From an uncultured cyanobacterium (GTDB taxonomy: Bacteria > Cyanobacteriota > Cyanobacteriia > Phormidesmidales > Phormidesmidaceae): a stretch of DNA of 64,000 nt. A model generated the notes under the pieces. The model had not been told where the DNA came from, ran no database searches, and worked only from the letters and a program-made list of their open reading frames with translations. The position numbers and the translations under genes are program-made. Where the stretch lies: contig CAWBZI010000007.1 in NCBI GenBank assembly GCA_963793265.1, positions 384,001 to 448,000 on the forward strand, in the 5' to 3' direction. This document shows positions 36,754 through 53,413 of the stretch, piece after piece; position 1 is the first letter of the stretch; the number at the start of each line of letters is the position of its first letter.

Positions 36754-36786
36754 CCTCATAAGTTCTTCAAAGTACGGCGCTATAAC
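36754..36786 (+). promoter_or_regulatory. Island promoter motif 1 (upstream of USP)
   Basis: CCTCA-taagtt-CTTCA-11 nt-TATAAC. A second, inverted repeat pair TGAGG-N6-TGAAG lies at 36679-36694. Confidence 0.6.
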
Positions 36787-36830
36787 GATAGGTAAGAAAA
36801 GAGAAAATTTAGAAGAAACAGGAGATAGAC

Positions 36831-37364
36831 ATGTTTGACAAAATCATCGTTGCTATCAATACAACTGAAAATTACGCTCTCCTATTCGACAAAGCGCTTT
36901 CACTCGCAAAGGCAACTGGCGCAGCGCTGAGATTAGTCAGTGTGATTACGCCTCACTACGACTATGGAACGTCTTTTCGCTACTATCCAGGCTCAGCTGG
37001 CTACGCGGTAACGATGGAGGATGGTTATTGGGATGCTTACCAAAAGCAGTATACAGATCTCAAGGAAGAAGGTTTTAGGATACTGTCTGGCTTGAGCAAC
37101 CAGGCTAGAGCAGAAGGCGTGCAGACTGAATTCTTTCAAAGGAGCGGCGAACCGGGAAAGGTCATCTGTGAGCTAGCCGATACCGAAAAAGCCGATTTGG
37201 TTATCGTTGGGAGCCATGGGCGCAGAGGATTAGAAGAGTTTCTAGTTGGCAGCGTCAGCAGCTACGTTATGCATCGTGCTCCCTGCTCGGTGATGGTTGT
37301 ACGTGGGCTGGCGCAGGTAGATAGTCTCTTTAAAGAGAAAATAGCAGAGACTTCTGTGGCGTAG
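36831..37364 (+). CDS. Universal stress protein
   Basis: MFDKIIVA, GEPGKVIC, ADLVIVGSHGRRGL..VGSVSSYVMHRAPCSV. Confidence 0.92.
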   Translation: MFDKIIVAINTTENYALLFDKALSLAKATGAALRLVSVITPHYDYGTSFRYYPGSAGYAVTMEDGYWDAYQKQYTDLKEEGFRILSGLSNQARAEGVQTEFFQRSGEPGKVICELADTEKADLVIVGSHGRRGLEEFLVGSVSSYVMHRAPCSVMVVRGLAQVDSLFKEKIAETSVA

Positions 37365-37374
37365 CAAGCGCTGT

Positions 37375-37407
37375 CTTCACGAAAACTTCACCTTGTAGGG
37401 TTACAGT
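37375..37407 (+). promoter_or_regulatory. Island promoter motif 2 (upstream of the Zn-ribbon microprotein)
   Basis: CTTCA-cgaaaa-CTTCA-11 nt-TACAGT. Confidence 0.65.
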
Positions 37408-37440
37408 TCAGTTGTCAGTAACAGCAAGGAGCTGAGTCCC

Positions 37441-37599
37441 ATGAACGTTTGTATTTGCTGCCATCATTCTTTGCTACGCCATATCGGTCGAGGTGATGTC
37501 TATTGGTATTGTTCTCAGTGCCATCAGGCTATGCCTGCTATTGAGATAGATGTTACTGACTACCTTTCCAAAAAACAAAAGCGCTTCCTCAGAGACTAG
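37441..37599 (+). CDS. 52-aa zinc-ribbon microprotein (below the ORF track cutoff)
   Basis: MNVCICCHHSLLRHIGRGDVYWYCSQCHQAMPAIEIDVTDYLSKKQKRFLRD*. Two CxxC pairs and an AAGGAG ribosome-binding site. Confidence 0.75.
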   Translation: MNVCICCHHSLLRHIGRGDVYWYCSQCHQAMPAIEIDVTDYLSKKQKRFLRD

Positions 37600-37705
37600 A
37601 ACCTGTTCCTTTTTGTTCAAAAGCTCAGGTTCAAAAGCTCGGCGCAGAGATTCTTGAATCAACAGTGTTTTTGGCCGAACCATTAGCCTGGTATGCCTGA
37701 AGTGA

Positions 37706-38443
37706 CTAGCTTGCGCTCTGATAGCTGGTTTTAGCCTGCCAGGCTTTGGCGGCTTGAGGGTAGTGAACTTGCATACAGCGATCGCAGATACCGTGCGTCA
37801 GCTCAGCTTCAGAATGCTGCTCGATAAATTGTTCAATGGATGACCAAAAGCCGTCATCGTTACGCACGCCCTTACAGTGGGAGCAAATAGGCACTAGCCC
37901 ATCCATCAGCTCTATCTTTTCTAAAGCATCGGCAAGCTTAAAGCAAACTCGCCGATACTCTAGCTGCGAAACGACCTGCCGAGCCAGCGCCTTGAGCTGT
38001 TCTTGCTGCCCTTCTGATAGTTCTCTGGGCTGATGGTCAATCACGCAGAGCGTTCCTAGTGAGTAGCCATCGGAAGTGGTCAGAGGGACGCCTGCGTAGA
38101 ACCGAATATCTGGGGCGCAGGTGACGAGCGGGTTGTCTGAAAATCGCTTATCTTCACTCGCATCGTTGATCACCATAATGTCTGTATCTAGTATGGCATG
38201 GGCACAAAAGGAAACATCGCGAGTGGTTTCGCTGGCGCTTAGCCCTACTTTAGACTTGAACCACTGACGGTCTGAATCGACGAGGCTGACTAACGCAATT
38301 GGCGTATCGCAGATAAAGGCGGCTAGGGCTGTAATATCGTCGTACGTTTGCTCGGGAGGAGTATCTAGTATGTTGTATGCCCTGAGTGCTCTAAGCCTAT
38401 CAGACTCTTTGGAAGGCGGTTTAGCTTTCATAATCAGGTTCAT
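37706..38443 (-). CDS. GAF-domain protein with a C-terminal Cys/His motif
   Basis: RLRALRAYNILDT, SFCAHAI, IRFYAGVPL, LGTLCVID. Tail PICSHCK...THGICDRC. Confidence 0.85.
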   Translation of the reverse strand: MNLIMKAKPPSKESDRLRALRAYNILDTPPEQTYDDITALAAFICDTPIALVSLVDSDRQWFKSKVGLSASETTRDVSFCAHAILDTDIMVINDASEDKRFSDNPLVTCAPDIRFYAGVPLTTSDGYSLGTLCVIDHQPRELSEGQQEQLKALARQVVSQLEYRRVCFKLADALEKIELMDGLVPICSHCKGVRNDDGFWSSIEQFIEQHSEAELTHGICDRCMQVHYPQAAKAWQAKTSYQSAS

Positions 38444-38730
38444 GACGATTCAGTACCTAGTCCTTCTATTTTATCTGCACCGACTAATCGCGAATGTTAA
38501 TACAATATGCGAATGTTAATACAATATTTAGCATGGCGTTTAGTGCGATGCATTCTAGCTCGGATCTACACTAAAGCTCATGCCATTTCAATAGGTAGGA
38601 CGGCAACAACTGCTACATGATATAAAAAACACTATGAATAGCGGCAAAGAGCATTTAAGCTGCTAGTTGTTTTGAAGCTTATGGAAAGACTATGTGATAT
38701 CTGTGCGGATGCTAGAGCGCGGCAAGATTA

Positions 38731-38893
38731 GGGACATGCGTCTAAATAAAGTACCGCTGATAGCGCTGTTCATTGCCTCGGGCATAGCAGTGCTAAGCCC
38801 CTACAGAAATTGACGGTGACGTAGGGGCATAGCACGCTATGCCCCAGGGCAATATTTGTCGGTTTGCCGGTACTTTATTTGAGCGCAGCTCCC
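38731..38893. mobile_element. MITE copy A (163 bp)
   Basis: Imperfect TIRs GGGACATGCGTCTAAATAAAGTACCG and GGGAGCTGCGCTCAAATAAAGTACCG, TTA flanking both ends, near-identical inverted copy at 50078-50239. Confidence 0.88.
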
Positions 38894-39268
38894 TTAGTCT
38901 GCCCAGCCTAACAACGTGCAGATTTGGCTTGCGATCGCCTCTGGTTCAAACGGTTTTAGAATGACGCCAGCACCAAGTTCTTCTAGCTCTTGTCGCTCAA
39001 TCTCTCTAGCTTGGGCAGTGAGAAAAATAACAGGTATTTTCTGAGTTGAGGTTTGGGCCTGAAGCTGGCGAAATAGCGAAATGCCGTCGATACCAGGCAT
39101 CATCACATCTAGCAAAATCGCCTCTGGCTGATTTGCTTGAGCCGCCGCCATGCCTTCTGTGCCAGAGGAGGCCAGCAGCACCTTCCAACCTGCTGTAAAC
39201 TCTAACGCAGCTTTCAGAATTATTCTAATACCCTGTTCATCATCAACTACTAAAACTGTTCGGCTCAT
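38894..39268 (-). CDS. Single-domain response regulator (CheY-like)
   Basis: VLVVDDE, ILLDVMMP, FLTA, KPF. Its TAA stop coincides with the MITE target triplet. Confidence 0.9.
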   Translation of the reverse strand: MSRTVLVVDDEQGIRIILKAALEFTAGWKVLLASSGTEGMAAAQANQPEAILLDVMMPGIDGISLFRQLQAQTSTQKIPVIFLTAQAREIERQELEELGAGVILKPFEPEAIASQICTLLGWAD

Positions 39269-39304
39269 ACTATTAACTCCTAATTGCCTCAAGTCATCCT
39301 CTCG

Positions 39305-41410
39305 CTAGCCGCTGACTGGCAGCGCAAAGCGGAAACAGCTACCTTCGCCAACCGTACTCTCAACCCAAATTTTACCGCCATGCTGCTCAATGATATTACG
39401 GCAAATCGCCAGCCCTAACCCAGTCCCTCCTTTTGCCTGGGCGTTGTTATGGCCGACCTGTGTAAATCTTTCAAACACCTTACTTTGCTGATCTGTAGGA
39501 ATACCAACACCCTCATCGCACACGCTGAAGCAAACAAGTGATTTACCTTCGCCTAGATCTATATCTTTGTAATCAGGCGTAGTGGTGACGCGAATAGTAG
39601 AACCCGGCGGAGAGAATTTGATGGCGTTGTCTAGCAGATTTGTAAGCACCTGATTGAGGCGGTCGCTATCGGCCACGATCTGTAGCCCTGGGTCGTCAAT
39701 CTCAATCGCGACGTTGGCATTAGTCGCTAGTAGCTCAAAAGCTCCTGCTATCTGGCGCGTGAGCGCTCGGGTATGCACAAGCTGCCTTCTCAGAGGACTT
39801 CTCCCAGATTCTAGGCGCTCCAAAGCTAAGATATCACCAACTAGCCTAACTAGCCGCTCGGAGCTTTCAGCCGCAACTTGCAATATATGCTGGCCCTGCT
39901 CAGATTGACTCGTAACAATGCCATGAGAAAGCAGTTTGATACCACCGTGAATTGTTGTTAGCGGCGTCCTCAACTCGTGACTCACCATCGCAACAAAGTC
40001 GCCCTTGAGCTTATCTACTGCGAAGCGCTCGGTTACATCTTCTCCGATGCTCATAGAACCTATGGCGTTACCTTGAGTATCGCGCAGCAGCGTGTTGTTC
40101 CATACTAGAATTCGGGCTTCTCCTGATTTTGTTAAGATCGAATGCTGATGCTGTAGAGGCACTTCAGACTGATGATATAGCTGCTCGAAGTAATCTTCTA
40201 CTTGCGATCGCTCAGGGCCAGGAATAAAGCTTTTAATCCAATCTGCACCCATCGTTTCTTCGGCACTATAGCCGACCAAATCTAGTAGGAAGGGGTTGGC
40301 ATAGGTTACATGGCCATCATGACCCACGCCCACAACAGCTAGCTGGACATCTTCTAAAAGCGTCCGCCAGCGCCGCTCTGACTGACTTAGTTCGGCGCTG
40401 CGCTGCATGACTCTTTCTTCTAGATCGGCGTTGATTTTATTGAGTTGGACGTAGGCTTGTTGAAGTTCGCGCTGCTCGCTTTTTAACCGTTCGTTCAGAC
40501 TAACCTGTTCGTTTTCTAGCGCTTGATTACGAACCTCTAGCAGCGTTTGGTTATCAGTGCGTAGCTGTTCTACTTCTTGTTGTAATAGATCTATCATCTG
40601 TTTTACTTCAGTAGGATTTAACGCCTGTAGCAAGCTACTTTGCGTAACCAGTCCGGCTAGTTTCCCGCTACGGGTACACACCACAAAGCGTCGAACCCGG
40701 TGCTGGTTCATCTGCTGGTGCGTCTGCCATAAAGAATCTTTGGGATGAACGGGCAGTAGTGGTGTGCTCATGACTGTCTGGGCTGATGTGGTTGCCATAT
40801 CCAGACCTAGCGTTTGAAACTGCACGATATCGCGTTCGGTCACAATGCCGATAGGACGAGCATCTGGCGCTAAAATTACCACGCAGCTGACGCCTTCTTC
40901 AGACATTTTTTGAGCGATCTGTCTTACTTTTGTAGAGGTCGGCGCGCACACGACGTTGGTTTGCATTACGCTCTCAACCAGTTTTAGCTTGAGCAACGTG
41001 GAAGGTGTGAGTGCTTTACGCAGACTGTTCTTTGTAATGATGCCGAAGAGGGTGCCGTCTGCTTCTACGACGGGGAGATGGCGCAGGCGATGCTGTTGCA
41101 TCTGTTCAAATACGCTGAAGGCGTCTGTGATATCAGCTTTGTGAATGGTGATAACTGGCTGGGTCATTACCTGCGCGATAGATTTGTTCGAGATAGGGTG
41201 TCCTGATGCGATTAAACGGACTAAATCTCGCTCTGTAAAAATGCCAGCAGGCTGTCGATTTTGGGTAATGAGCACATAGCTATCTTCGCAAGCATTCATC
41301 TGAGCGATCGCCTCTTCTATCGGCGTTTCAGGCGAAACCATTGACGGTGTAGAAATAACGGCTCGACTCACTAGCAAAGCGGCGTTTAGAGGTAGAGGCT
41401 CTGGCTCCAT
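39305..41410 (-). CDS. Cytoplasmic histidine kinase, 4xCBS-PAS-HisKA-HATPase
   Basis: Repeated GIFTERD and GIVTERD CBS motifs, PAS domain, VSHELRTPLT, NLLDNAIKF, GGTGLGL. Confidence 0.9.
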   Translation of the reverse strand: MEPEPLPLNAALLVSRAVISTPSMVSPETPIEEAIAQMNACEDSYVLITQNRQPAGIFTERDLVRLIASGHPISNKSIAQVMTQPVITIHKADITDAFSVFEQMQQHRLRHLPVVEADGTLFGIITKNSLRKALTPSTLLKLKLVESVMQTNVVCAPTSTKVRQIAQKMSEEGVSCVVILAPDARPIGIVTERDIVQFQTLGLDMATTSAQTVMSTPLLPVHPKDSLWQTHQQMNQHRVRRFVVCTRSGKLAGLVTQSSLLQALNPTEVKQMIDLLQQEVEQLRTDNQTLLEVRNQALENEQVSLNERLKSEQRELQQAYVQLNKINADLEERVMQRSAELSQSERRWRTLLEDVQLAVVGVGHDGHVTYANPFLLDLVGYSAEETMGADWIKSFIPGPERSQVEDYFEQLYHQSEVPLQHQHSILTKSGEARILVWNNTLLRDTQGNAIGSMSIGEDVTERFAVDKLKGDFVAMVSHELRTPLTTIHGGIKLLSHGIVTSQSEQGQHILQVAAESSERLVRLVGDILALERLESGRSPLRRQLVHTRALTRQIAGAFELLATNANVAIEIDDPGLQIVADSDRLNQVLTNLLDNAIKFSPPGSTIRVTTTPDYKDIDLGEGKSLVCFSVCDEGVGIPTDQQSKVFERFTQVGHNNAQAKGGTGLGLAICRNIIEQHGGKIWVESTVGEGSCFRFALPVSG

Positions 41411-41446
41411 ATTCAGATATTTAGCTCCTCAACACCGAATCTTTCT

Positions 41447-41479
41447 AGCGTATCTTGAAATAATGACATTCTTGTGAAG
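41447..41479 (-). promoter_or_regulatory. Island promoter motif 3 (upstream of the CBS kinase)
   Basis: Minus strand CTTCA-caagaa-TGTCA-11 nt-TACGCT. Confidence 0.5.
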
Positions 41480-41493
41480 GTATCTGCTGACCC

Positions 41494-43936
41494 TCATACT
41501 ATCGGCATGACGCGATCGCGACCCGCTGCTTTAGCTTTATATAACGCTTGGTCAGCACTTTGATACAGGCTCTGCAAATCCATGGCATCGTGAGGGTAAA
41601 CGGCTACGCCCGCACTGAAGCTAACTTTGAATGTCAACGGCTCTACAGTGGCGGTATTGATAGCGCCTGTCTCAAATTGCTCTGTTCGCCATGCCTGCAA
41701 GAACTGACGCAGCCGGTGAACTCCCTCCTGGCGACCAACGCCATAGAGACCGACGTATAAATTCTTCTCCGCCCCAGCGGGCTACCACATCTTCATTGCG
41801 AAACGTCGATTTCAGGCGGTCACCAAAGCGCTTAAGCACCTGATCGCCCTTTGGATGGCCGTACTTATCGTTGATCTCTTTAAAGTTGTCCAGATCGATC
41901 GCTGCAAAGCAGAGCGTTTGACCTTGCCGCTGAGCCAACCCCAGTAATCGATTCAACGACTGGGTGGACTTACGCCGGTTGGCAACGCCCGTAAGACTAT
42001 CGACATCGGCCATGAGCTTGCGATCGCGCGATCGCGCCAACCAGCCCAGCACCCGTGCCACCAGCTCAGGCGCTACAATCGGTTTACGAATATAGTCATC
42101 AGCGCCCACCGAAAACACCTGCTGAATCGTATCGGCATCGGTATAGCCCGACATAAACAAAACGGGCAGCTCGCACCAACGGGGCGCATTGCGCACGACC
42201 TGGCACAAGTCAAATCCACTGATTCCAGGCATTCTGACATCCAGCAAAACTAAATCAGGCTCAAAGCTTTCTAACGTTTGCCAAAATGAGCGTGGGTCGC
42301 TCAATAGCCGTAGCTCAAATCCCCAGGGCTGCAACAAACTCTGGAGCAGCGTTAGCATCGCTGGCTCGTCATCTACAATCAGCAGCTTGGCGGTAGGCTC
42401 AACTCCTCTTCGGAGTACTCGCGCTGCTGTTTCAAGCAAATCGCTCGGCGTCACTGGCATCTGAAGCAATCCATCAACGCCCATGCGAGCGACCCTAACC
42501 CGATTCTCAAAACTAGCCGCTGCTGTCAGCACAATATTTGGAATAGGCGGCTGAGTAGCCTGCATCTCAGCTAGCAGCTTAAACTCGTCGCTGTCATTAT
42601 CTGGCAGCTCAAGAGAGCCATCAAAATCAAAGACAACAATATGAGGCGGTTGAGCAGAAGCAGAAATCGAAAATATAGCGTTTCTGGCCTGCGCAATGGA
42701 ATCTACGATAGAAATTTGCGTTTGGTAGCGTCCAGCCATTTCCTGTAGAGTTTCCAGCCACTCCCGATCGGTTTCGCCCGATTTTTCTACCATCAGCAGA
42801 TGAAAGTGCTGTCCTGGTAGTAGTTCTATTGGCATCGGAAACGATCTGGGGTCGGACGGAACTACAGATGTAGAGACAGGTGGAGCAGGTGTAGAAGTAT
42901 CTACAATTCCTTGTTCTAGCGATCGCTGTATTTGTGTGATGGCCGTCTCTAGCTGGCTGATATGATCTGCACTCAGGTAGGCATTGGCGCGAAGGAGTTG
43001 CTCTATGTCTCGACAGCGGGCAGTTGCAGACTTAAAGCCAAAGCTACCTAGCGACCCAGCTAGAGAATGCGCTTCGGTGAGTATCTCTTGCTTAACAGAT
43101 CTATCGAGGAGTCCTGGTTGTAACCCACGCAGCGTATTGGTAACGTTATCCACCCGCTGAATGTAGCTTTGACTGACGCTTTGCCAGAGCGCTGCTATAT
43201 CCAATGAGCCTGTGACGTTCTCTACTTCTGGCGTAGAATCAGGCAACTGTGGAGCTGCTTGGCTTGTGTCGGTATTAAGCCGATAGCCCAATCCATAGAC
43301 CGTTGTAATAGTATCTGTTAGCCCTGCTTTTTTGAGCTTTTGGCGCAGCCCTTTAATATGCGTTCGGACAGAACCCACATTAGGCGTATCGTCGTAGGCC
43401 CACACCTTATCGAGCAGATTGTCTAGACTGAAAATTCGGCTAGGATTGCGTAAAAATAATTCTAAAAGCGCGTATTCCTTAGGCGTAACGGAAATGGGTA
43501 GATTGCGACAGCTCACCTCACCGCTGCGCGGATCGAGGCACAGATCGCCCCACTGTAATACAGGTGAAGCTAGCCCTTCCGCCCGACGCAGCAAAGCGCG
43601 AATACGGGCCAGCAGCTCTTCAAACTCAAAAGGCTTTACTAAGTAATCGTCAGCGCCAGCATCTAAACCAGCAACTTTGTCACTACTGGCATTGCGGGCA
43701 GTCATCAAAATGACAGGCGTGTAATTGCCTTCGTTTCTAAGGTGTCTGCATAGCTCTATGCCATTGAGCTTGGGTAGCATCCAGTCCAGCAGGATAAAAT
43801 CGTAGGGAAAGGCTTCGGCCATGTCTCTGCCCGTGACACCATCTGTTGCCAAATCCATGACGTAGTGGTGCTCGCTCAGTAGCTGTTCTATCGCGCCTGC
43901 TAAAGCCTGATCGTCTTCTACTAGCAGAAATTTCAT
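41494..43936 (-). CDS. Multidomain response regulator REC-wHTH(OmpR)-Hpt-REC-REC-GGDEF, with a 1-nt insertion near 41756
   Basis: LLVEDD..LLDWMLP, TVYGLGYRL, AHSLAGSLGSFG, two further REC domains, RNED...GGEEF. Removing one base after GGEEFI joins the 41494-41700 ORF (FSAGVA...ADQALYKAKAAGRD). Confidence 0.88.
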
Positions 43937-44079: not shown

Positions 44080-44697
44080 TTACAGAGACTCATTGAAGAA
44101 AGTTAGCTCCACGCCGATACCAGCAGGATCAGTGACGAATAGCTGCGTTTGGCAAATATCTGGTAGCTGAATGAGGCGATAGGGCGTCTGGGTGGCGATC
44201 ATTTTTGCGATCGCCCGTTTAAGCCCTACGCACCCTAGCGAAATATGATTGAAGTGCCCTTTTTGCGAGCTGGGTAAAGCTGCTATGCCTGGTCGCACGC
44301 TTAGATGCACAATGGGTGTGCGTCCGGCATATAGCCAGTAGCCATCGTTTGCTAAATGTGCCCTGGGGCCAAGTTTTAGCCCGATAACGGCTGTATAGAA
44401 GTGCTTCACTTGCTCGATTAGCTCACTATGGGCAGTGATATTAAAGTGGTTAAGACCACAAACGCTCATGTGGTCTGTCGCTGACGACTGGCAGCTAGGC
44501 CCGCTTAAGTTAAACTCACTCAAGCTGAACTTGCTTGAGTTAAACTCGCTTGAATCGGGCCGTGCTGCTAGTTGCTCAGTTGCTTTTAATAGCGGTATTT
44601 TATCAGTTGATTCTCGATACGGCAGTTCCTGATTGGTTTTTCCAAATGCCAGCGCTAGATCTGTTCCAATGGTCTTTGCAAGGACAACTTTAGTCAT
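44080..44697 (-). CDS. VOC/glyoxalase family protein with an N-terminal extension
   Basis: GLNHFNI, FYTAVIGL, GYWLYAG..IVHL, NHISL, QLFVTDPAGIGVEL. GGAGGAGG ribosome-binding site. Confidence 0.8.
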   Translation of the reverse strand: MTKVVLAKTIGTDLALAFGKTNQELPYRESTDKIPLLKATEQLAARPDSSEFNSSKFSLSEFNLSGPSCQSSATDHMSVCGLNHFNITAHSELIEQVKHFYTAVIGLKLGPRAHLANDGYWLYAGRTPIVHLSVRPGIAALPSSQKGHFNHISLGCVGLKRAIAKMIATQTPYRLIQLPDICQTQLFVTDPAGIGVELTFFNESL

Positions 44698-44811: not shown

Positions 44812-44844
44812 ACCTTAAAGAATAAATGTGAGGAAGTTATGCGC
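44812..44844 (-). promoter_or_regulatory. Island promoter motif 4 (upstream of the VOC gene and regulator run)
   Basis: Minus strand GCGCA-taactt-CCTCA-11 nt-TAAGGT; distal half-site degenerate. Confidence 0.45.
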
Positions 44845-44935: not shown

Positions 44936-47449
44936 CTAGTGAAGTGCAGCATAGATAGCCTGTAATAAGGATTCGGAAGAGAAGGGCTTCTGCAAAAAAC
45001 CTTTTACACTGTCGCTGGCAGAGGCTGCAACGTCTGCGTTTCCTGGCAATCCACTAATTAATACCGCTTTGAGCTGAGGATCTATCTTTTGCATAACGCG
45101 AGCTGCCGACACGCCATCTAGCTCAGGCATTGCCATATCCATGACGACCAAATCAATAATTTCTTTGTGCTCTGTGTATTGAGCGATCGCATCAATCCCA
45201 TCACTCGCATCTAGCACCTTGTAGCAGTGAGTTTCGAGTATGCTGCGAACAATCACCCGAATCGCAGGTTCATCGTCTACAACCAGTACACACTCTCCTT
45301 TACCCACCGGCAAGAACTCTGTTTCTGTCGTCGTTCCTGCTGTAGATTCTAAAGCAGGCAGGTAGATCTTAAACTGGGTGCCCTTGCCAACTTCGCTAGC
45401 TACGCTAATAAAACCGCCGTGACTTTTGACGATGCTATGAACAGTGGAAAGCCCTAAGCCAGTACCGCCCTGCTCCTGCTTGGTGGTGAAAAAGGGTTCA
45501 AAAATGCGATCGCACAGACCGCTCGCAATGCCCTCACCCGTATCGGCAACTGTCACTAAAATGTAGGGGCCTGTATGTGCTTCTATATGGCTATCTACAA
45601 ACGCCTGATCGAGTGATAGGTTTACTGCCGATACGCTCAAAGTTCCGCCATCAGGCATGGCGTCTCGGGCATTGACAAACAAATTCATAAACACCTGATG
45701 TAGCTGGGTTGGATCGCCGCTTACAGACCACAGCGAATGAGGAATATCAACAGAGATATCAATCGACTTTGGAAAGGTTTTATGAACAAAACTCCTAATT
45801 TCTCTAATCAAATGCTTGACCTGTAGCGGATTGCGACTGCCTTCTGCCCCTCTGGCAAACGAGAGCATTTGCCCAATAATTTCAGAGCCGCGCTTAGCAC
45901 TATCTTGTAGAATCTCAAATTGCTGTTTTAGCTGCTTGTTTGCAGTCGGTAGCTGCATAGGCAGTAGCTCCGCAACTCCGTATATCGGCGTCAAAATGTT
46001 ATTGAGATCGTGGGCAATGCCGCTAGCTAGGGTGCCAATACTTTCTAACCGTTGCGCTCTTAGGAACTGCGCCTGAAGCTGTTTTGCCTGGGTGATATCA
46101 GTGTTCACCGTCAAAATAGAAGCTGGGCGATCGCGCTTATCTCTAAGCAGCGTCCACCGGCTCATCACAGTGATACTCTGGCCCGTTCGAGTGAACTGCT
46201 GGCATTCACCTTGCCAGCGCCCTTTGTCGAGCAAACTTTGCATCGCTTCGGTCGGCTCATGGAGTTCATCTAAAGACAGCAGTTCTTCTGCATCTCGCCC
46301 TAGTGCCTCCTGCTCGCTCCAGCCATACAGCACCGCTGCGCCCTTGTTCCAAAACAGTATCCGATTATCCGTGCCGCGCACGAAAATAGCTTCTGTGGCG
46401 ACATCTAGCAGTGCTGCCTGCTCATGTACTTTTTGCTGTGCGAGCTTGCGATCGGTAATGTCTATAATCAATCCGTCAATGTAAGCGGACTGATCGCCTG
46501 TGGCTAAAACCGGCTGTCCTTTCTCCCAAAAGTATCGAATGCTGCCCGCTTTGTTTCTAATTCGATACTCAGCTTGAAAGGGTTGATGCTTTGCAATCGA
46601 CTCCTTTATCACGGTCTGCACATGATTCCGGTCTTCTAGCAAAATAAGCGACTCGATAGAACAGACGCCATCTATCAATAGCTCGGTGGGCTCAAACCCG
46701 GTCAGTGATTTGCACTGACTGTTGAGAAAAACCGTGTGATTGTGATTGTCATAAAACAGCCGATAGACGATTCCCGGCATATTTTCAGTCAGCGTGCGAT
46801 ATTCTAGCTCGCTTTGCTTAAGGACTTGAATAGAGTGCATCCGTTCAACCGTTTGCGCGATCAAAGTGGCAATAGACTGAATAAAATCAACGTCATGGCT
46901 GTTGAATAAGCGTTCTTGAATAGAATGAATCTCCAAAACGCCATAGGGATTAGAATAGCTGCCAATGGTAACACTCAGGCCGCTGGTAACGTCGCCCTCT
47001 CCCAATAGAGAAAGTTCGTTAAAGCGAGTCTCGGTGCTAAAGTTCTTGATCGCGATTGGATACTCATGGCTCAGCGTGTAGCCCGCTTGAGTATTTTCGT
47101 TTGTACTAATTACAGCCTGACCTACTAGCGCTAGGGGCCATCCAAATCCGGCTTTCAGTAATAGCGTTTCGCTACCAGGCAGCAATTCTAAGATTTTGCA
47201 ATAGTCTATGTCTAGCGTCTGAGCAATCGCGCACGCCACCTTATTCATAAACCGGCTAAGGTCATCAGCGGCCAGTGCGAGCTGTCCTAGCTCAGCAATC
47301 GTTCCCTGCTGCTCTACTCTCGCTTGCAAGGACTTTTCTATTTGTTTGCACTCGGACGTACTTTGATCGAGCTTGCAGGTTACTGGCTGAGAGGAGGTTT
47401 GATCTGAGCCTATGTGATCGGCAGAGTCTATGGATTGTAGGATGCTCAT
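44936..47449 (-). CDS. Hybrid histidine kinase GAF-PAS-PAS-HisKA-HATPase-REC
   Basis: IAHDLNNILT, MNLFVNARDAMP, GGTGLGL, VLVVDDE..VMDMAMP. Confidence 0.9.
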   Translation of the reverse strand: MSILQSIDSADHIGSDQTSSQPVTCKLDQSTSECKQIEKSLQARVEQQGTIAELGQLALAADDLSRFMNKVACAIAQTLDIDYCKILELLPGSETLLLKAGFGWPLALVGQAVISTNENTQAGYTLSHEYPIAIKNFSTETRFNELSLLGEGDVTSGLSVTIGSYSNPYGVLEIHSIQERLFNSHDVDFIQSIATLIAQTVERMHSIQVLKQSELEYRTLTENMPGIVYRLFYDNHNHTVFLNSQCKSLTGFEPTELLIDGVCSIESLILLEDRNHVQTVIKESIAKHQPFQAEYRIRNKAGSIRYFWEKGQPVLATGDQSAYIDGLIIDITDRKLAQQKVHEQAALLDVATEAIFVRGTDNRILFWNKGAAVLYGWSEQEALGRDAEELLSLDELHEPTEAMQSLLDKGRWQGECQQFTRTGQSITVMSRWTLLRDKRDRPASILTVNTDITQAKQLQAQFLRAQRLESIGTLASGIAHDLNNILTPIYGVAELLPMQLPTANKQLKQQFEILQDSAKRGSEIIGQMLSFARGAEGSRNPLQVKHLIREIRSFVHKTFPKSIDISVDIPHSLWSVSGDPTQLHQVFMNLFVNARDAMPDGGTLSVSAVNLSLDQAFVDSHIEAHTGPYILVTVADTGEGIASGLCDRIFEPFFTTKQEQGGTGLGLSTVHSIVKSHGGFISVASEVGKGTQFKIYLPALESTAGTTTETEFLPVGKGECVLVVDDEPAIRVIVRSILETHCYKVLDASDGIDAIAQYTEHKEIIDLVVMDMAMPELDGVSAARVMQKIDPQLKAVLISGLPGNADVAASASDSVKGFLQKPFSSESLLQAIYAALH

Positions 47450-47541
47450 AAGTTTGAGTCAGTACGCAAAAAATGCGGTTCTAGATCGAAGATCTGTCGA
47501 AATAGCATAGCAATCACCTTTATAAAAGTATCTATGCCATT

Positions 47542-47574
47542 AGAGTACAAAGACAGTTTGAGGAAATTGTGAGT
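47542..47574 (-). promoter_or_regulatory. Island promoter motif 5 (upstream of the hybrid kinase)
   Basis: Minus strand ACTCA-caattt-CCTCA-11 nt-TACTCT. Confidence 0.55.
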
Positions 47575-47625: not shown

Positions 47626-47658
47626 CTTCATAGTTTCCTCACAACTGACTCCCATAAT
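47626..47658 (+). promoter_or_regulatory. Island promoter motif 6 (upstream of glgX copy 2)
   Basis: CTTCA-tagttt-CCTCA-11 nt-CATAAT, with an extra pair TCTCA-N6-TTTCA at 47600-47615. Confidence 0.6.
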
Positions 47659-47935
47659 AGCGAGGTAGGCAAAAATAGAATGCTATTGAGAAAGGTCGCT
47701 CCCTTGCATGATATGCGCTGGATTTTCCTGCAAAGCCCTAATGTGTGTTAGTGAGAGGAGTTATTATGCTTGTGTTAGCATCTCCGACTAAAAAACATTT
47801 TATCTGATGTTATCCCGTGCTCCCATCTGGCAAAAAGCTGCGATATCCGAAAGCGTCTCTCTAAAATTGTTCAGCAGGTTGCCTAGCTGATAAAAGCGTC
47901 GCGTTCAAGGTCTGTGGGCCTTGTTCATATAAACC

Positions 47936-50068
47936 ATGATTTCTAACAAAGAGCCTTTTATCCAACCTGGTAATAGCTTTCCTTTAGGGGCTACTGTACA
48001 AAATCATGGCATTAACTTTTGTCTTTATGCCCCAGATGCGATCGCTGTAGAACTTCTCCTTTTTAGCTCTCCTAATGCTCCTCAGCCGCAGACTATTCTT
48101 CAGCTCAATCCGCAAAAAAACAAAACTGCTCACTACTGGCATATATTCGTTGACAATCTCTCTTCAGGACAAGTCTACGCTTACAGAGTAGATGGGTCTT
48201 ACGATCCATGCGCTGGGCTGCGGTTCAATCGGAATAAAGTCCTGCTCGATCCCTATGCCCGCAGCGTGACGGGCTGGGATATCTATTCTCGTAAAGCAGC
48301 AAGCGATCGCCATGATAACTGCGCTCAAGCCCTGAGAAGTGTCGCAATTGATTTGACTCCTTACGATTGGGAAGGCGATATTCACCCCAAAGTTCCTTAT
48401 GCAGCAACCGTTATCTACGAGCTGCACGTAGGCGGGTTTACTCAGCGAGAAAATTCTGGCCTGCCCGTTGAAAAGAGAGGAACTTATGCGGGACTTATAG
48501 AAAAGATTCCGTACCTGAAGGCGCTGGGCGTTACAGCCGTAGAGCTAATGCCTATACAACAGTTTGACCCTGGCGATGCTCCCGCAGGGTTAACTAATTA
48601 CTGGGGCTATAGTCCAATCGCTTTTTTCGCACCGCATCAGGCTTACAGCTCTTGCAAGGATAGTTTGGGGCCAGTCGATGAGTTTCGCAATATGGTCAAA
48701 GCTTTGCACCGCGAAGGGATTGAAGTAATTTTGGATGTCGTGTTCAATCACACTGCTGAGGGCGATTGTGAAGGGCCAACGCTGTCGTTTCGAGGACTGG
48801 CAAATGGAGACTATTACATTCTTGATAAGGACAAAACCTATTACAAAAACTACAGCGGCTGTGGCAATACGGTGAAGACCTCTGCAATCAGCGGCTACCT
48901 GATCTTTGACTGTCTGCGCTACTGGGTTTCTGAAATGCATGTTGATGGATTCCGGTTTGATTTAGCTTCGGTGCTCTCACGCGATGTAACGGGCGAACCC
49001 ACGGAAAATCCGCCTATCTTATGGATGATTAATACCGATCCGGTGCTGGCAGGCACTAAAATTATTGCTGAGGCGTGGGATGCCGCAGGACTGTACCAGT
49101 TTGGCAGCTTTGCGGGCGATCGCTTCTCCGAATGGAACGGGCCTTATCGAGATGAGGTAAGGCGGTTTGTTAAAGGCGATCGCAACATGGTAAAAGCGGT
49201 TGCCCATCGAATTGCCGGTAGCCCCGATCTGTATCCTCACCTCAAGCGAGGGCCGAACTACAGCATTCATTTTGTTACCTGTCACGATGGGTTCACGCTA
49301 AATGACTTGGTGAGCTACAACGAGAAACATAATCAGGCTAATGCAGAAGACAATCGGGATGGAGCTAGCGAGAACTGGAGCTGGAACTGCGGGGTCGAAG
49401 GGCTGACTGATAATGCGGAAATTCAGGCGCTGCGAGTGCAGCAGGCAAAAAACGCGCTGGTGATATGGGCGATCTCACAGGGAACGCCTATGTTGCTGAT
49501 GGGGGATGAGGTATTGCGATCGCAGCAGGGAAACAATAACGCCTATTGTCAAAACAACGAGCTAAGCTGGTTCGACTGGAGCTGGCGCGATGACCAAAAA
49601 GATTTCCGCCGCTTCACCCAGCAGCTCATAAAATTTGTTCAATCACTCTACATACTCAAGCACGACCATCCGCTCATCGTGACCCCTCAACCCATTCTAG
49701 AACCGGCAATTACCTGGCACGGCACTCAGCTCGGCCAGCCCGACTGGAAAGACAATTCTCACAGTTTGGCTTTTACCCTACGCTACGGGCAGCACGAAGA
49801 ACGCCTTCACGGGCTACTTAATATGTTTTGGGAGCCACTTACATTTGAGCTGCCACCGCTCGAACGCGGACAATACTGGCGTCGCATTATTAACACGGCT
49901 TTACCGTCCCCACAAGATATCTCTTCTGTAGAAAGCGCACCCTGCACGAATCAGCCCTTTTATAGGGTTGAAGCTCGTTCCACAGTAGTCCTTATGGCAA
50001 TTAGAGAAAGTGTTCCAATTTCTGCCTCTAGTACAGAATTAACGACAATCAGTGAGTATGCACTATAG
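47936..50068 (+). CDS. glgX: Glycogen debranching enzyme (isoamylase), copy 2
   Basis: NYWGYSP, DVVFNH, VDGFRFDLA, IAEAWD, FVTCHDGFTL. Confidence 0.93.
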   Translation: MISNKEPFIQPGNSFPLGATVQNHGINFCLYAPDAIAVELLLFSSPNAPQPQTILQLNPQKNKTAHYWHIFVDNLSSGQVYAYRVDGSYDPCAGLRFNRNKVLLDPYARSVTGWDIYSRKAASDRHDNCAQALRSVAIDLTPYDWEGDIHPKVPYAATVIYELHVGGFTQRENSGLPVEKRGTYAGLIEKIPYLKALGVTAVELMPIQQFDPGDAPAGLTNYWGYSPIAFFAPHQAYSSCKDSLGPVDEFRNMVKALHREGIEVILDVVFNHTAEGDCEGPTLSFRGLANGDYYILDKDKTYYKNYSGCGNTVKTSAISGYLIFDCLRYWVSEMHVDGFRFDLASVLSRDVTGEPTENPPILWMINTDPVLAGTKIIAEAWDAAGLYQFGSFAGDRFSEWNGPYRDEVRRFVKGDRNMVKAVAHRIAGSPDLYPHLKRGPNYSIHFVTCHDGFTLNDLVSYNEKHNQANAEDNRDGASENWSWNCGVEGLTDNAEIQALRVQQAKNALVIWAISQGTPMLLMGDEVLRSQQGNNNAYCQNNELSWFDWSWRDDQKDFRRFTQQLIKFVQSLYILKHDHPLIVTPQPILEPAITWHGTQLGQPDWKDNSHSLAFTLRYGQHEERLHGLLNMFWEPLTFELPPLERGQYWRRIINTALPSPQDISSVESAPCTNQPFYRVEARSTVVLMAIRESVPISASSTELTTISEYAL

Positions 50069-50077
50069 CCGCCTTAA

Positions 50078-50239
50078 GGGAGCTGCGCTCAAATAAAGTA
50101 CCGGCAAACCGACAAATATTGCCCTGGGCATAGCGTGCTAAGCCCCTACGTCACCGTCAATTTCTGTAGGGGCTTAGCACTGCTATGCCCGAGGCAATGA
50201 ACAGCGCTATCAGCGGTACTTTATTTAGACGCATGTCCC
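50078..50239. mobile_element. MITE copy B (162 bp), inverted relative to copy A
   Basis: TAA flanks both ends. Differs from the reverse complement of copy A by one indel and one substitution. Confidence 0.88.
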
Positions 50240-50583
50240 TAAGCTCAATTACAATCTTCGTAGAAAATAATAGTTTTCTCAATCGACTAGGTGCAGATGC
50301 AGTTTCTTAGAACACTCTTGTTGCCCGTAGGCTATTGCCAGTCAGTCACAAACCTGATCGAGCTGAGTGAGCGTCAGCAGTTTCATCAGCATATAGCTGA
50401 ATTATGTAGACTTTATGTGTTGGCCCATGCTGAAACAAACAAGCTTCAACCTATGCTTCTTAATCTCCTAAATGCTGAACAAAAGTCATGCGTGCCAAGC
50501 ATAGTTGTGTCAGAATATAGATAAGACAAATTTCAAATGCCAGCGTTCCCTTCATTAAAACGCTGGCTGAAGGGAGGTCACGA

Positions 50584-51246
50584 ATGAGATACATCACGAA
50601 GCCTGTAGTGCTGCACCATACAACACAATCGACGCACCAGCGCAAACTCAAAAAAAGAAGGTACTTTCCAACTATGGTAGTTACTGCGGTGGCAATGATA
50701 GCGACATCAGCCATGGCAGAAGCTCCTATTGAGGAGTCTACCTTCACGCCTCAAAGCAGCCTCTCACAAGTTATTCTTAGCCAAGAAGCTACCCGTCAAA
50801 ACAACATACGTCAGCTAATTCTACTCAATGAATGTATGGGCTGCGATCTAGCAGGTGTCACCCTAACGGAAGCTCACCTCATTGGTGCTGACCTACGCCA
50901 AGCCAACCTTCGAGGTGCGAATCTCACAAACAGCAACCTAGAAGGTGCAGATTTAGCCGGAGCTGACCTCACTGGAGCCAACCTTACCCGCGCCTTTTTA
51001 ACTGATACCAGCCTGGCAAATACACAGCTAGACGGGGTTAACTTCAGCGGCGCTCATCTCTACTCTGTCGATGTGAGCGGAGCCTCAATGAACAACCTTA
51101 ATCTAACAGGCGCACAGCTATTCAACACGCCTATCTACATCGGTGGCGAAGAAGACTCGCTGCCCAGTCAGCTAGAGCCAGTGAGTCCTACGGAAGAAGT
51201 CAATCCTATGGAGCACTACAATCCGCTGCTAGACTTTGCTCTGTAG
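50584..51246 (+). CDS. Exported pentapeptide repeat protein
   Basis: Hydrophobic signal segment, ECMGCDL, AHLIGADLRQANLRGANL repeats. Confidence 0.85.
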   Translation: MRYITKPVVLHHTTQSTHQRKLKKRRYFPTMVVTAVAMIATSAMAEAPIEESTFTPQSSLSQVILSQEATRQNNIRQLILLNECMGCDLAGVTLTEAHLIGADLRQANLRGANLTNSNLEGADLAGADLTGANLTRAFLTDTSLANTQLDGVNFSGAHLYSVDVSGASMNNLNLTGAQLFNTPIYIGGEEDSLPSQLEPVSPTEEVNPMEHYNPLLDFAL

Positions 51247-51299
51247 CGTTGAATAGCATTTCGTATCACATCCGTACAATCTCCTCAGCCGACGAGCGA

Positions 51300-51332
51300 C
51301 CTCATAGAATCCTCATGTCTTCTTTCTAAGCT
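51300..51332 (+). promoter_or_regulatory. Island promoter motif 7 (upstream of the HoxW-like gene)
   Basis: CCTCA-tagaat-CCTCA-11 nt-TAAGCT. Confidence 0.65.
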
Positions 51333-51373
51333 GAGAAAAGAAAGGCGCATCACTTAAGGAGACTAAGGTAACA

Positions 51374-51940
51374 ATGATTTACTCATCCGTCGTTCAAGAA
51401 CCTCAGCAAAAGATATCTCGGAATGTGGCTAAACAGATAGCGCGGCCTCACTTCCTGGTTATTGGCTACGGTAATGGTGCAAAAGGCGACAACGCAGTCG
51501 GTATCCAAATTGCCAATCATATCTCCGCTTGGGAAGCCCCATTGGTTAAATCTATGGCTGCTTATCAGCTCACGCCAGATCTCGTAAACAATCTTGCCTC
51601 TGTAGACTATGTGTTCTTTGTAAGGCCCTGTCGGAGATCGAGTCATGCTGGAACGCTACAGGTAGATCCTATTTTCGCGAGTGGTAAGCCACCGCAAACT
51701 GAACAATCAGCGGAGCGATCGCCCTCGGAATGCACTCATCCGTGCACGCCAACCGCGCTACTGAACTTAGCTCAGCAGCTATACGGTCATTCGCCCCAAG
51801 CATGGCTTCTACAAATACCTACTGACAGCACCAACTGCAACCAAGCATTGTCTTCTACTGCTCAGAGAGGTTACGATCGCGCGCTTAGAACGATTGAGAA
51901 GTTTTTCATGACTTACCAGCAACCGGCTGAGATGATGTAG
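51374..51940 (+). CDS. Hydrogenase maturation protease homolog (HoxW-like), degenerate
   Basis: LVIGYGNGAKGDNAVG, YQLTPDL, VFFVRPC, THPCTPTALLNLAQQLYG..PQAWLL. Confidence 0.7.
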   Translation: MIYSSVVQEPQQKISRNVAKQIARPHFLVIGYGNGAKGDNAVGIQIANHISAWEAPLVKSMAAYQLTPDLVNNLASVDYVFFVRPCRRSSHAGTLQVDPIFASGKPPQTEQSAERSPSECTHPCTPTALLNLAQQLYGHSPQAWLLQIPTDSTNCNQALSSTAQRGYDRALRTIEKFFMTYQQPAEMM

Positions 51941-52068
51941 GCAACATTCGGTCAAGCGCGACCGAAGCGATGGCAACGGCTTGGATTGCTTTAGCCCGAT
52001 TGCAAATGACTTTTCCCGGTTCGCCTCCGGCCTGCTGCAAAAACTCTGCATGGACGCCTGCTACTTTT

Positions 52069-52428
52069 GGCATTCAAGATGTTCCCTTTGTGGGTGGCAA
52101 GAATGCTTCGCTTGGGGAAATGATCCAGCAGCTCTCTCCACAGGGCGTTCGCGTCCCTACCGGATTTGCGACTACGGCTAATGCCTATGCCTACTTCATT
52201 CGAGCAGGTGGGCTAGAAGAAAAAATGCGATCGCATCTAGATTCGCTAGATACAGAGGACATTGAAGCCCTAAGAAAGAGCGGTCAGTCCGTGAGAGATC
52301 TTATTCTAGAAACGCCTTTTCCGCCGGAATTAGAGAGGGCTATTGAAAGCGCCTACCTGGACTTGTGCGATCGCAACAATCCAAATCTAGATGTCGCTGT
52401 GCGCTCTAGCGCCACCGCCGAAGACCTC
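52069..52428 (+). pseudogene. ppsA: N-terminal fragment of phosphoenolpyruvate synthase
   Basis: DVPFVGGKNASLGEMI..GVRVPTGFATTA...DVAVRSSATAEDL, after which similarity ends abruptly. About 120 aa of a protein that is normally about 800 aa. Confidence 0.88.
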
Positions 52429-52515
52429 TTTCTGAACTGGCATCGGCAAACCGTTAAGCAAGGTGACAACCGTAGAGTTGCAACAGCGTAAAGATTCACG
52501 GCAAGGAAAAATATT

Positions 52516-52662
52516 ATGTTTAATACAATTCTAGTGGCCTTAGATACCGAGGAAGACTGCACCTCTGTTTTTGAACAGGTAATGGATATAGCCAAGCAGA
52601 TGGGTGCAGGGCTGGAGGTAATGGGCGTACCGCTTTTTACTTCAACTCATCGGAGAAAGTAG
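52516..52662 (+). pseudogene. N-terminal fragment of a universal stress protein
   Basis: MFNTILVALDTEEDCTSVFEQVMDIAKQMGAGL... parallels the start of the intact USP at 36831; 48 aa only. Confidence 0.7.
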
Positions 52663-52752
52663 TCGCCCACCTGTTTTTCGGCGACCACTTTCTCCAATGC
52701 AATGAGCCACAGATCGAAGACGCTAGAGCGCGAAATAAGAGGGACATAAGAA

Positions 52753-53376
52753 ATGAAAGTAGCCGATATTATGACGACTAAAGTAGTGGCCATTCGCGGC
52801 TCGTCTACAGTCGCACAAGCTGCAGCCTTAATGAAGCAAGAAGGCGTTCACGCGCTGGTTGTAAAGCGCATAGATGATTCGGACGCTTATGGCATCGTTT
52901 CGGTGAGCGATATTGTTGGCCAGGTGATTGCGTTTGGCCGCAACCCAAAGCAAATTCGGGTATACGAAATTATGTCTAAGCCCTGCCTTGTGCTCAATCC
53001 CAATCTCGGGGTTGAGTATGCGGCGCGTCTGCTAACTCAGTTCAATCTGCACAGCGCTCCTGTTATCCAGTCCGAGCTGATAGGAATTCTATCTGTCTCC
53101 GACATTTTGGATCGTAGCAGCGCTATAGAGGAACCGCGCGAGCTAGCGCTAGCCGATGAGATTGAAGCTCTTTCTGAGGCTGCGCAGGCTATCTGTGAGG
53201 ACAACGGGCCAAACTCGACCGCCTGCGCGGAGGCTTGGGCTAGAGTTGATGTTCTACAGGCAGAGCTAGCTCATCAACAGACTAAAACGCTCGACCAATT
53301 CGCCTCGGAGCAGTTTTATGAGGAGTATCCAGAAGCTTTCAAAAATAGAGAATACGATGCTTGGTGTAGTGGATAA
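52753..53376 (+). CDS. CBS-CP12 fusion protein
   Basis: Two CBS domains (DAYGIVS, RVYEIMSKPCLVLNPNLGVEYAARL) followed by CP12-like CEDNGPNSTACAEAWARVDVLQAE. Confidence 0.88.
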   Translation: MKVADIMTTKVVAIRGSSTVAQAAALMKQEGVHALVVKRIDDSDAYGIVSVSDIVGQVIAFGRNPKQIRVYEIMSKPCLVLNPNLGVEYAARLLTQFNLHSAPVIQSELIGILSVSDILDRSSAIEEPRELALADEIEALSEAAQAICEDNGPNSTACAEAWARVDVLQAELAHQQTKTLDQFASEQFYEEYPEAFKNREYDAWCSG

Positions 53377-53380
53377 ATAC

Positions 53381-53413
53381 CTTCATAAGACCCTCAACAT
53401 TCTTGGCTAGTTT
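53381..53413 (+). promoter_or_regulatory. Island promoter motif 8 (no annotated gene downstream)
   Basis: CTTCA-taagac-CCTCA-11 nt-TAGTTT. Confidence 0.6.

Follow-up and report, generated by a model that had tools for sequence, protein, structure and literature searches.

The 64,000-nucleotide stretch analyzed here (the window; positions 384,001 to 448,000 of contig CAWBZI010000007.1, assembly GCA_963793265.1, from an uncultured cyanobacterium of the Phormidesmidaceae) encodes, between positions 36,754 and 53,413, a universal stress protein (USP), a glycogen debranching enzyme, a HoxW-like protein, CBS-domain proteins and a two-component relay of response regulator, histidine kinase and single receiver (Table 1). 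Interspersed with these genes are eight copies of a tandem repeat followed by a -10-like hexamer, which a first-pass annotation had noticed as shared promoters; we confirmed all eight, together with the coordinates, strands and hexamers it gave, the half-sites being separated by 6 nt and the hexamer following after 11 nt. We propose that this box marks a regulon of fermentation, hydrogenase and energy-stress genes that is widespread in cyanobacteria and seems not to have been described, and that its most likely reader, judged from sequence, is the two-component regulator encoded within the same cluster (41672-43936).

Table 1. Boxes and genes of the cluster, in window coordinates (G numbers are other genomes in our set; scores are matrix scores)
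Feature	Position	Strand	Remarks
Box + -10 before USP	36754..36786	+	fermentation-type score 23.8 vs FaRLiP-type -6.6
Universal stress protein, putative target	36831..37364	+	Pfam Usp 2e-32
Box + -10 before Zn-ribbon microprotein	37375..37407	+	exact pattern; weakest of the eight; scores 11.0/11.6, type ambiguous
52-aa CxCC...CxxC microprotein	37441..37599	+	no Pfam match; family recurs behind box
Weak ninth box before GAF-domain gene 37706-38443	38676..38708	-	score 11.9; non-pattern p 0.0016
Single receiver, RfpC/RcaF-like putative phospho-shuttle	38894..39292	-	Pfam; 41% identity to genome's RfpC
4xCBS-PAS histidine kinase, candidate cognate sensor	39305..41410	-	PAS without FixL heme His
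Box + -10 between regulator and kinase	41447..41479	-	same position boxed in G006, G012, G021
REC-wHTH-HPt-REC-REC-GGDEF response regulator, RfpB/RcaC family	41672..43936	-	Pfam; candidate box reader; 35% identity to RfpB
Presumed VOC/glyoxalase-like gene heading regulator operon	44080..44697	-	no Pfam match; likely true start about 44469
Box + -10 heading VOC-regulator-kinase-receiver run	44812..44844	-	autoregulation position
GAF-PAS-PAS hybrid kinase, putative target, possible second input	44936..47449	-	Pfam
Relic ORF of 20 codons separating the hybrid kinase from its box	47446..47508	-	no homologue in fetched loci
Box + -10, divergent pair with 47626	47542..47574	-	score 31.9
Box + -10, 278 nt before glgX	47626..47658	+	score 13.8
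Glycogen debranching enzyme GlgX, putative target	47936..50068	+	TIGR02100 above cut-off
Best box + -10, before HoxW-like gene	51300..51332	+	score 37.1
Degenerate HoxW/HybD-like protein	51374..51940	+	TIGR00072 37.8 bits, below cut-off of 47.45; no PDB match
ppsA (PEP synthase) 5' fragment	51970..52491	+	intact ppsA in boxed cluster of G013
USP pseudogene fragment	52516..52662	+	tblastn
CBS-CP12 fusion	52753..53376	+	Pfam CBS + CP12
Box + -10, no conserved gene downstream	53381..53413	+	followed by relic (about 53464-53585) of opposite-strand ORF

The consensus of the box is approximately T-CYTCA-YA-N4-CYTCA-N11-TAnnnT, a pho-box-like arrangement with an 11-bp period. As the annotation had indicated, three sites carry one degenerate half-site, TGTCA at 41479 and GCGCA at 44844 (two mismatches each) and ACTCA at 47574; in addition, the hexamers of 36754 and 47626 are degenerate. 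With up to one mismatch allowed, six of the eight sites match CYTCA-N6-CYTCA-N11-TAnnnT, as against a mean of 0.23 and a maximum of 2 in 100 dinucleotide shuffles, so that the pattern is not as common in shuffled DNA. The 5.68-Mb genome holds 6 exact and 45 one-mismatch matches, of which three and three lie in this 17-kb stretch, and a relaxed matrix found in the intergenic DNA of the window only the eight sites and one weak extra (38676-38708, minus strand). Around position 36694, on the minus strand, there is a further tandem half-site that is not followed by a regular -10. Matches of a loose matrix before dnaA, sufB, genes for an MFS transporter and a methyltransferase, and others, were taken as chance occurrences because they were lost with a better matrix.

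The refined matrix was trained on 89 sites of other genomes, themselves chosen with the eight-site matrix, and therefore provides a partly independent test. Columns outside the original pattern support seven of the eight sites (p <0.0001 to 0.037 relative to intergenic DNA), the site at 37375 being unsupported (p 0.15), with a combined p over sites of 2e-15. Nine intergenic matches score at least 17, and none does so in any of five shuffles. The spacing (6,11) accounts for 17 matches in the intergenic DNA of the genome, compared with no more than 6 for each of 34 other spacings, and for 46 matches in the loci of 20 relatives picked by protein homology, compared with no more than 6 for any other spacing. 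A half-site gap of 6 was found 46 times and any other gap at most twice, which defines a tandem direct repeat of 11-bp period; TAnnnT follows at a gap of 11 in 47 of 72 tandem half-sites and at most three times at any other gap, and the repeat is thus in fixed phase to the -10 hexamer, downstream of which we noted a purine bias. Pho boxes, too, lie about 10 nt before the -10 box.

The box is by no means confined to this genome. The exact pattern occurs in 74 of 301 genomes, in up to 22 copies (reversed control, 0-2), and is unevenly distributed among our families (29/37 in f22, 15/16 in f19, 1/14 in f2), most picocyanobacteria and family f23 being without it. All 25 genomes of the genus have relaxed matches, 2-37 each, compared with a single control match in total; within the genus, the box is repeatedly seen upstream of the regulator operon, in the gap that separates regulator from kinase, and ahead of ppsA and of genes for USP, CBS and pentapeptide proteins. 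Searching the strict consensus over GTDB yielded at least 123 stretches, with cyanobacteria named in 79 of the 80 titles listed; 84 of 86 such sites are intergenic, 75 of 86 are oriented toward the next large open reading frame (ORF), and unsearched columns are conserved as well. Among 74 first genes, we found pyruvate:ferredoxin oxidoreductase (PFOR; 8), HSP20 (6), phosphofructokinase (PFK; 4), USP (4), radical-SAM/Fer4_12 (4), pentapeptide (3), HoxE (2), protoglobin (2) and HypA (1) families, 10 others and 30 without a family, while in complete genomes ppsA, pflA-adhE, xfp, hoxF and lrtA are box-led too; the assigned functions are mostly fermentation, hydrogenase and dormancy. HoxW-like loci carry a box within 350 nt upstream in 24 of 30 cases, two of them from this genome (3 of 30 on the opposite strand), hence 22 of the 28 homologues from other genomes; the six misses comprise three distant genomes, one operon-internal gene, one shifted -10 and one locus without anything. 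The suggestion of an undescribed regulon apparently stands for what we call the fermentation-type box, although it overlooked both the phylum-wide spread and a published sister motif.

Several lines of evidence point to the regulator of the cluster as the reader. Regulator, kinase and receiver are encoded in rfpB-rfpA-rfpC order, and the syntenic combination of a REC-wHTH-HPt-REC regulator with a single receiver and a kinase is that of the RcaEFC/RfpABC systems; by inspection, the Asp and His phospho-sites of the relay proteins are present, those of REC, HPt and kinase as well as the wHTH being intact. The kinase, with four CBS domains and a PAS domain, lacks the GAF/PHY domains of a bilin photosensor, which RfpA has as GAF-PHY. 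Its orthologues follow the regulator in eight genomes (G002, G006, G007, G009, G010, G011, G021, G023), and orthologous regulator operons are boxed upstream in G004, G007, G009, G010, G011 and G023. This genome encodes five regulators of the clade, and each of the 15 genome-wide matches of the refined matrices is 16.5 kb or less from one of four of these, the distance being at most 3.1 kb for the four matches outside the window and the far-red light photoacclimation (FaRLiP) cluster; we attach no probability to this proximity because the matrices were partly trained on homologous neighbourhoods. Recognition helices follow the box class, VRTH beside CCTCA boxes and VTSH/VTAH in RfpB, and two paralogues in the genome share VRTH with the window regulator. 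Grouping, but not direction, was taken from a FastTree of REC and wHTH domains (102 rows, SH-like support only; 60 long-frame family loci taken among the matches listed, single-domain members left out); with the wHTH alone, resolution was poor and the window regulator formed a long branch. The first-pass proposal of one OmpR-family activator, with a tandem repeat replacing the -35 element and co-regulation of USP, CBS and hox-type genes, is supported, although the candidate reader and kinase had been overlooked inside the cluster itself.

Two of the other family loci are boxed modules in their own right. One (L001:6307-11873; G000:C1:284307-289873) comprises a HoxW-like gene, a family regulator, a GAF-PAS kinase split in two ORFs, and boxed receiver and CBS genes. 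In the other (L007:4146-4593; G000:C6:438146-438593), a variant with ACTCA as second half, also seen near orthologous regulators in G005, G008, G019 and G022, precedes a 142-aa ORF without assigned function between regulator and kinase. The fifth family regulator adjoins a dCache kinase and is unboxed, so that the designation 'RcaC' does not suit it, and an RcaC L-box was not found in the genome.

Published transcript data, from pooled triplicates in the case of Chlorogloeopsis fritschii, are in accord with co-regulation. The hox/nifJ cluster of strain PCC 6912 has four boxes, before nifJ, USP-hoxE, hoxF and a gene for a 118-aa protein, in a gene order equal to that of PCC 9212 loci 02683-02698. 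In PCC 9212, the four first genes drop in far-red light to 0.13, 0.085, 0.17 and 0.13 in the wild type and to 0.16, 0.12, 0.12 and 0.08 in the rfpB mutant (PMC6424891, Table S3). The distal or unboxed hoxU, hoxY, CBS, hoxH, hoxW, 02683, 02687, 02694 and 02699 stand at 0.56-1.95 (0.72-1.95 for hoxU, hoxY, hoxH, hoxW and CBS), boxed ppsA at 0.079 and an NDP-forming acyl-CoA synthetase at 0.27. Thus, box-led genes of Chlorogloeopsis co-vary independently of RfpB, and these homologues do not show the far-red induction, lost in the rfpB mutant, of FaRLiP genes; since some are 1.5-3.8-fold lower in that mutant, slight cross-talk may exist. In Nostoc 7120, nifJ, hox and ppsA fall jointly, 42-, 74- and 107-fold (PMC7699953, Table 2, at the level of transcripts alone).

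From sequence, spacing, conservation, synteny, domain composition and this published co-variation, we consider it the best explanation of the whole, with a probability of roughly 0.65, that the boxes are activator-dependent promoters read by the cluster's own regulator; binding, transcription starts, activation and signal are predictions of this reading. A phosphorylated OmpR-family dimer would bind head-to-tail to two TCA(C/T) half-sites spaced by 11 bp, in a geometry modeled on PhoB; the half-sites would stand in for the -35 element, and a sigma70-type polymerase would be recruited to the -10 box 11 nt downstream. The regulator, possibly sharing its sites with the two VRTH paralogues, would be driven by the CBS-PAS kinase and the single receiver in a three-step relay and activate its own operon. 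Across cyanobacteria, the module may switch on fermentation, hydrogenase and dormancy-type genes under shortage of oxygen or respiratory energy, which many heterocystous-type lineages would detect with a heme-PAS of the FixL type fused to the regulator. For this genus, adenylate charge would be the more probable input, as the four CBS domains and the missing heme His of the local kinase suggest by analogy with the CBS family, and in this genome a reduced, partly decayed remnant of USP, GlgX, CBS-CP12, HoxW-like and relay genes would be left. The FaRLiP motif would be a sister box, read by the paralogue RfpB.

The case for oxygen comes from one box-linked, Nostocales-type clade in which the regulators are fused (REC-wHTH-HPt-REC-REC-PAS-kinase-REC) and which has a box within the fetched 4-7 kb in 12 of 23 cases. 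A FixL/DosP-like PAS domain with the proximal heme His is present in 18 of these 23 regulators (FixL-like match E 8.5e-16), the five misses being one protein cut by the locus end and four shorter ones. PFOR, Hox and the activase of pyruvate formate-lyase (PFL) are oxygen-sensitive, and together with the heme-PAS this favours low oxygen and supports the view that the box-linked heme-PAS regulators sense oxygen. The proposed dark or low-oxygen role accordingly remains plausible, through the targets elsewhere and the heme-PAS of related regulators.

A number of observations weigh against our best explanation. With respect to the reader, the clade of the window regulator includes 13 relatives, of which 10 are boxed in the fetched locus, yet 8 of those 10 loci belonged to the training set of the matrix; G020 has two boxes and no family regulator at E<=1e-30; and the regulator family is found in 68 of 80 genomes, the box in only 53, so that presence of the family alone does not predict the box. 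As to the signal, the window regulator falls outside the heme-PAS clade, in a separate genus-level clade, the PAS domain of the local kinase has Val at the heme-His column and no FixL match, and a narrow profile detected no FixL-type PAS linked to any of this genome's regulators. Among the targets, hoxE, hoxF and hoxH queries gave no tblastn match at 1e-10 in a genome that is 99% complete, nifJ, pfk and a full ppsA were not found in it, and no box lies in the 500 nt checked before its homologues of pflA, adhE, xfp, acs, lrtA and hsp20. In C. fritschii, finally, PFK (0.65 or 1.03) and the radical activating enzyme (0.95 or 4.0), mapped by annotation only, do not follow the other box-led genes (PMC6424891).

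Both transcriptomes also show targets to be high in illuminated, CO2-enriched cultures, where simple anoxic induction would predict otherwise: in Nostoc 7120 they are high in 3% CO2 in the light and collapse 1 h after a CO2 step-down (PMC7699953), and in C. fritschii they are high in 1% CO2 and white light and low in far-red light or with erythromycin (PMC6424891). This makes it a live, if considerably less probable, alternative that the same box and regulator family respond to a surplus of carbon or reductant, or to the adenylate state in the light, the genes serving as an overflow valve; a local kinase with four CBS domains and no heme His would suit such a signal. It is harder to reconcile with the heme-PAS that 18 of the 23 box-linked fused regulators carry and with the oxygen sensitivity of PFOR, Hox and PFL activase, and we infer that a short anoxia while carbon-rich cells were centrifuged could give the same data. 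That Hox and nifJ were not found, that the cluster is partly decayed and that targets are high in CO2-rich light all make low oxygen a less certain signal.

The state of the cluster raises a second, rather improbable alternative, namely that the regulon is a non-functional relic here, its boxes surviving from a recently decayed cluster. Signs of decay are the ppsA and USP fragments, the relic ORF 47446-47508, a frame change near the end of the regulator's GGDEF domain, and the orphan box at 53381; together with the missing Hox and nifJ, these would be expected of a relic, and beside the larger islands of G013, G003, G017 and G019 (24-37 boxes) the cluster has the appearance of a reduced version. 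However, the REC, wHTH, HPt and kinase phospho-sites have been preserved, six target ORFs remain uninterrupted, and seven of the eight boxes retain consensus columns that had not been searched for. The designation 'hox-associated' in the functional sense is unsupported, as none of hoxE, hoxF and hoxH was found and the score of the HoxW-like protein does not reach the family cut-off. At 53381, the box itself is sound but no conserved gene lies downstream for it to serve as a promoter; a small RNA starting there was considered and is unsupported (folding z -1.69, only the central relic and a terminator matching relatives). One such island, G013:C10:76874-241957, has about 26 boxes in 165 kb.

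The host genome also has a full FaRLiP cluster, in the order chlF-psa-rfp and with psbO2, and a variant of the box precedes chlF, psbA3, apcD5 and psbO2, but not rfpABC. In other genomes, the FaRLiP-type box was found before chlF in 9/9 and psbA3 in 8/8 cases and before other psbA loci in 0/16. A 33-bp 'short' motif before these genes, with a 61-bp form at chlF, has been reported as specific to FaRLiP species (Antonaru et al., bioRxiv 10.1101/2024.05.15.594131); the text available of the preprint makes no mention of a direct repeat, OmpR or non-photosynthetic targets. From its length and position, the FaRLiP-type box appears to be this 33-bp motif, and if the 16-bp element upstream and the intervening 12 nt are included, its length becomes 61 bp, that of the chlF motif. 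The two boxes would be sister versions: FaRLiP sites have CTYCA half-sites, with T at position 2 in 21/21 (partly set by the search pattern) and CTCCA or CTTCA as second halves, whereas the window class has mostly CCTCA.

The window sites could also be additional RfpB targets, in which case RfpB, by itself or through cross-talk, would extend the far-red regulon to stress genes and the breakdown of glycogen. They share the 33-bp architecture of the boxes before chlF, psbA3, apcD5 and psbO2, the site at 37375 scores equally under both matrices, USP, CBS and pentapeptide genes with hybrid-scoring boxes lie in the FaRLiP cluster, and there is the modest effect of the rfpB mutation in C. fritschii. 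Yet seven of the eight window sites are not of the FaRLiP type in half-site sequence, the non-FaRLiP matrix giving them scores that are higher by 13 bits or more. Moreover, seven relatives (G003, G004, G008, G009, G018, G021, G022) have 6-30 boxes, with neither a far-red ApcE2 nor an RfpB orthologue found (best full-length match <=41%, compared with 66% in the control G016; several are fragmented or 87-95% complete, G009 being 98% complete in about 20 contigs), which argues that RfpB is not needed for the box; G007 and G012 were not counted because the former has RfpB without ApcE2 and the latter a split RfpB-like match. Since box-led genes also drop in far-red light while psbA3 rises about 40,000-fold (PMC6424891), we regard control by RfpB as slightly less probable even than a relic.

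Three observations on the FaRLiP side may be added. The RfpB orthologue of G007 (57%; L361, G007:C12:257430-262361) is encoded by a genome in which we detected no far-red ApcE2. The USP, CBS and pentapeptide genes inside the host's FaRLiP cluster (L010:4256-6431; G000:C7:108256-110431), families that also occur in the window cluster, carry their own boxes, one nearer the FaRLiP type (29.5 vs 22.8) and one nearer the window type (20.9 vs 10.1). Upstream of chlF, the 5' end region of the motif (L017:9376-9393; G000:C7 about 93376-93393) resembles the RpaB HLR1 repeat on the opposite strand; one near-perfect half is present in 10/10 chlF promoters (the host and nine others), centred about -60 from the predicted start and within the activating window of PMC6525291, which suggests dual control of chlF by low light (RpaB) and far-red light (RfpB).

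That the reader is instead a known single-domain OmpR factor, of the CopR/RppA/ManR group or a global one such as RpaA or NblR, is very unlikely: the half-sites resemble the TTCAT of the CopR motif, and the N-terminus of the window regulator scores highest with the RppA family model, but no copper, manganese or nickel genes are among the targets (known targets as given in PMC13421787), the genome's one RppA-family protein checked lies outside the clade with a different recognition helix and no nearby box-like match, and boxes cluster at multi-domain regulator genes, so that the CopR/Rre34 link raised in the annotation is unsupported.

Our preferred reading, activation by the cluster's own regulator, combines features of several known systems. 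With the RfpA-RfpC-RfpB and RcaE-RcaF-RcaC relays it shares gene order, the REC-wHTH-HPt-REC core and one wHTH clade; it differs from RfpABC in having a CBS-PAS sensor rather than a phytochrome, VRTH instead of VTSH, an additional REC and GGDEF, box-led autoregulation and metabolic targets. Like the pho box (CTGTCAT-A(AT)A(TA)-CTGT(CA)A(CT); PMC3465305), the element repeats in tandem every 11 bp, has TCA(T/C) as its core and an A/T-rich spacer, and takes the place of -35, whereas its half-site is CYTCA rather than TGTCA, its regulator is multi-domain and no phosphate genes are among the identified targets. The FixL-like PAS with proximal His recalls FixLJ and DosP, and the USPs, CBS proteins, HSP20, PFK and HPF/LrtA recall DosR-type dormancy regulons; unlike these, the output is an OmpR wHTH rather than LuxR-type, sensor, kinase and DNA binder reside in one polypeptide, and the window's own kinase has no heme His. 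LexA, CyAbrB1/2, RpaA and SigE act on the same operons in other species (PMC13421787, PMC2674450); none is described there as reading this tandem repeat, and they may act in parallel on the same promoters.

The PhoB-type tandem box, the Rca/Rfp-type relay and, from the preprint, the FaRLiP motif are known, whereas the fermentation-type box and its regulator are apparently new. Literature searches, with most subscription papers outside their coverage, found no description of either, and exact motif strings retrieved only unrelated clinical papers; the full data of the FaRLiP preprint may bear on this. In the text available of a 2026 review (PMC13421787), the hox/nifJ regulators are nucleoid or global factors from unicellular models and 'RcaC' occurs 0 times. 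For the activation of PFOR, Hox and other fermentation genes in most filamentous cyanobacteria, our analysis offers a precise box together with candidates for the activator and the oxygen sensor, all of relevance to H2 production and mat survival. The published FaRLiP motif can also be divided into three parts, the first like HLR1, the second a tandem box of the PhoB type and the third a -10, which predicts the RfpB site, according to Liu et al. 2023 (PMC10127269) one still being looked for, and suggests the bases that separate sister regulators in one cell.

More tentatively, and on balance we would not yet bet on it, one OmpR subfamily may use a modular promoter grammar, in which a fixed tandem TCA box and -10 are kept and small half-site changes are matched to recognition-helix changes (VRTH, VTS/AH and others). 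Its commonest version would be an unrecognised master switch for fermentation and hydrogen metabolism, in many filamentous species a single fused heme-PAS/kinase/activator oxygen sensor, and FaRLiP control would rely on this module with a phytochrome in the place of its sensor and the USP, CBS and pentapeptide passengers kept; if so, the responses to far-red light and to low oxygen could influence each other in species living in mats. Possibly representing more paralogue-specific classes, an ATTCA half-site variant occurs at L209 (G054:C2), next to a 783-aa family regulator, with matches in G042, G130 and G212, and a TTCCA/CTCCA pair occurs in C. fritschii (L315, L316).

Some minor features of the cluster and its relatives remain to be listed. 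The microprotein family has a box within 300 nt in 10 of 11 pattern-matched homologues (most loci having been fetched by the motif), and a further homologue adjoins the boxed ppsA of C. fritschii. The gene heading the regulator operon, which we take to have a VOC/glyoxalase fold, has a homologue in G013 that is boxed too. The relic ORF at 47446-47508 presumably resembles the N-terminus of an MBL-fold dioxygenase, and the source ORF of the relic at 53464-53585, without a Pfam match, is presumably transposase-like. The boxed ppsA of G080 (L057:3471-7088) contains an intein. Genes for glutamate dehydrogenase, a succinic semialdehyde dehydrogenase-like protein and a TPP enzyme (window 32106-36651) adjoin the cluster, as they do in G011. 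Two glgX paralogues, 42% identical, lie less than 40 kb apart (window 8229-10352 and 47936-50068), and the second alone is boxed.

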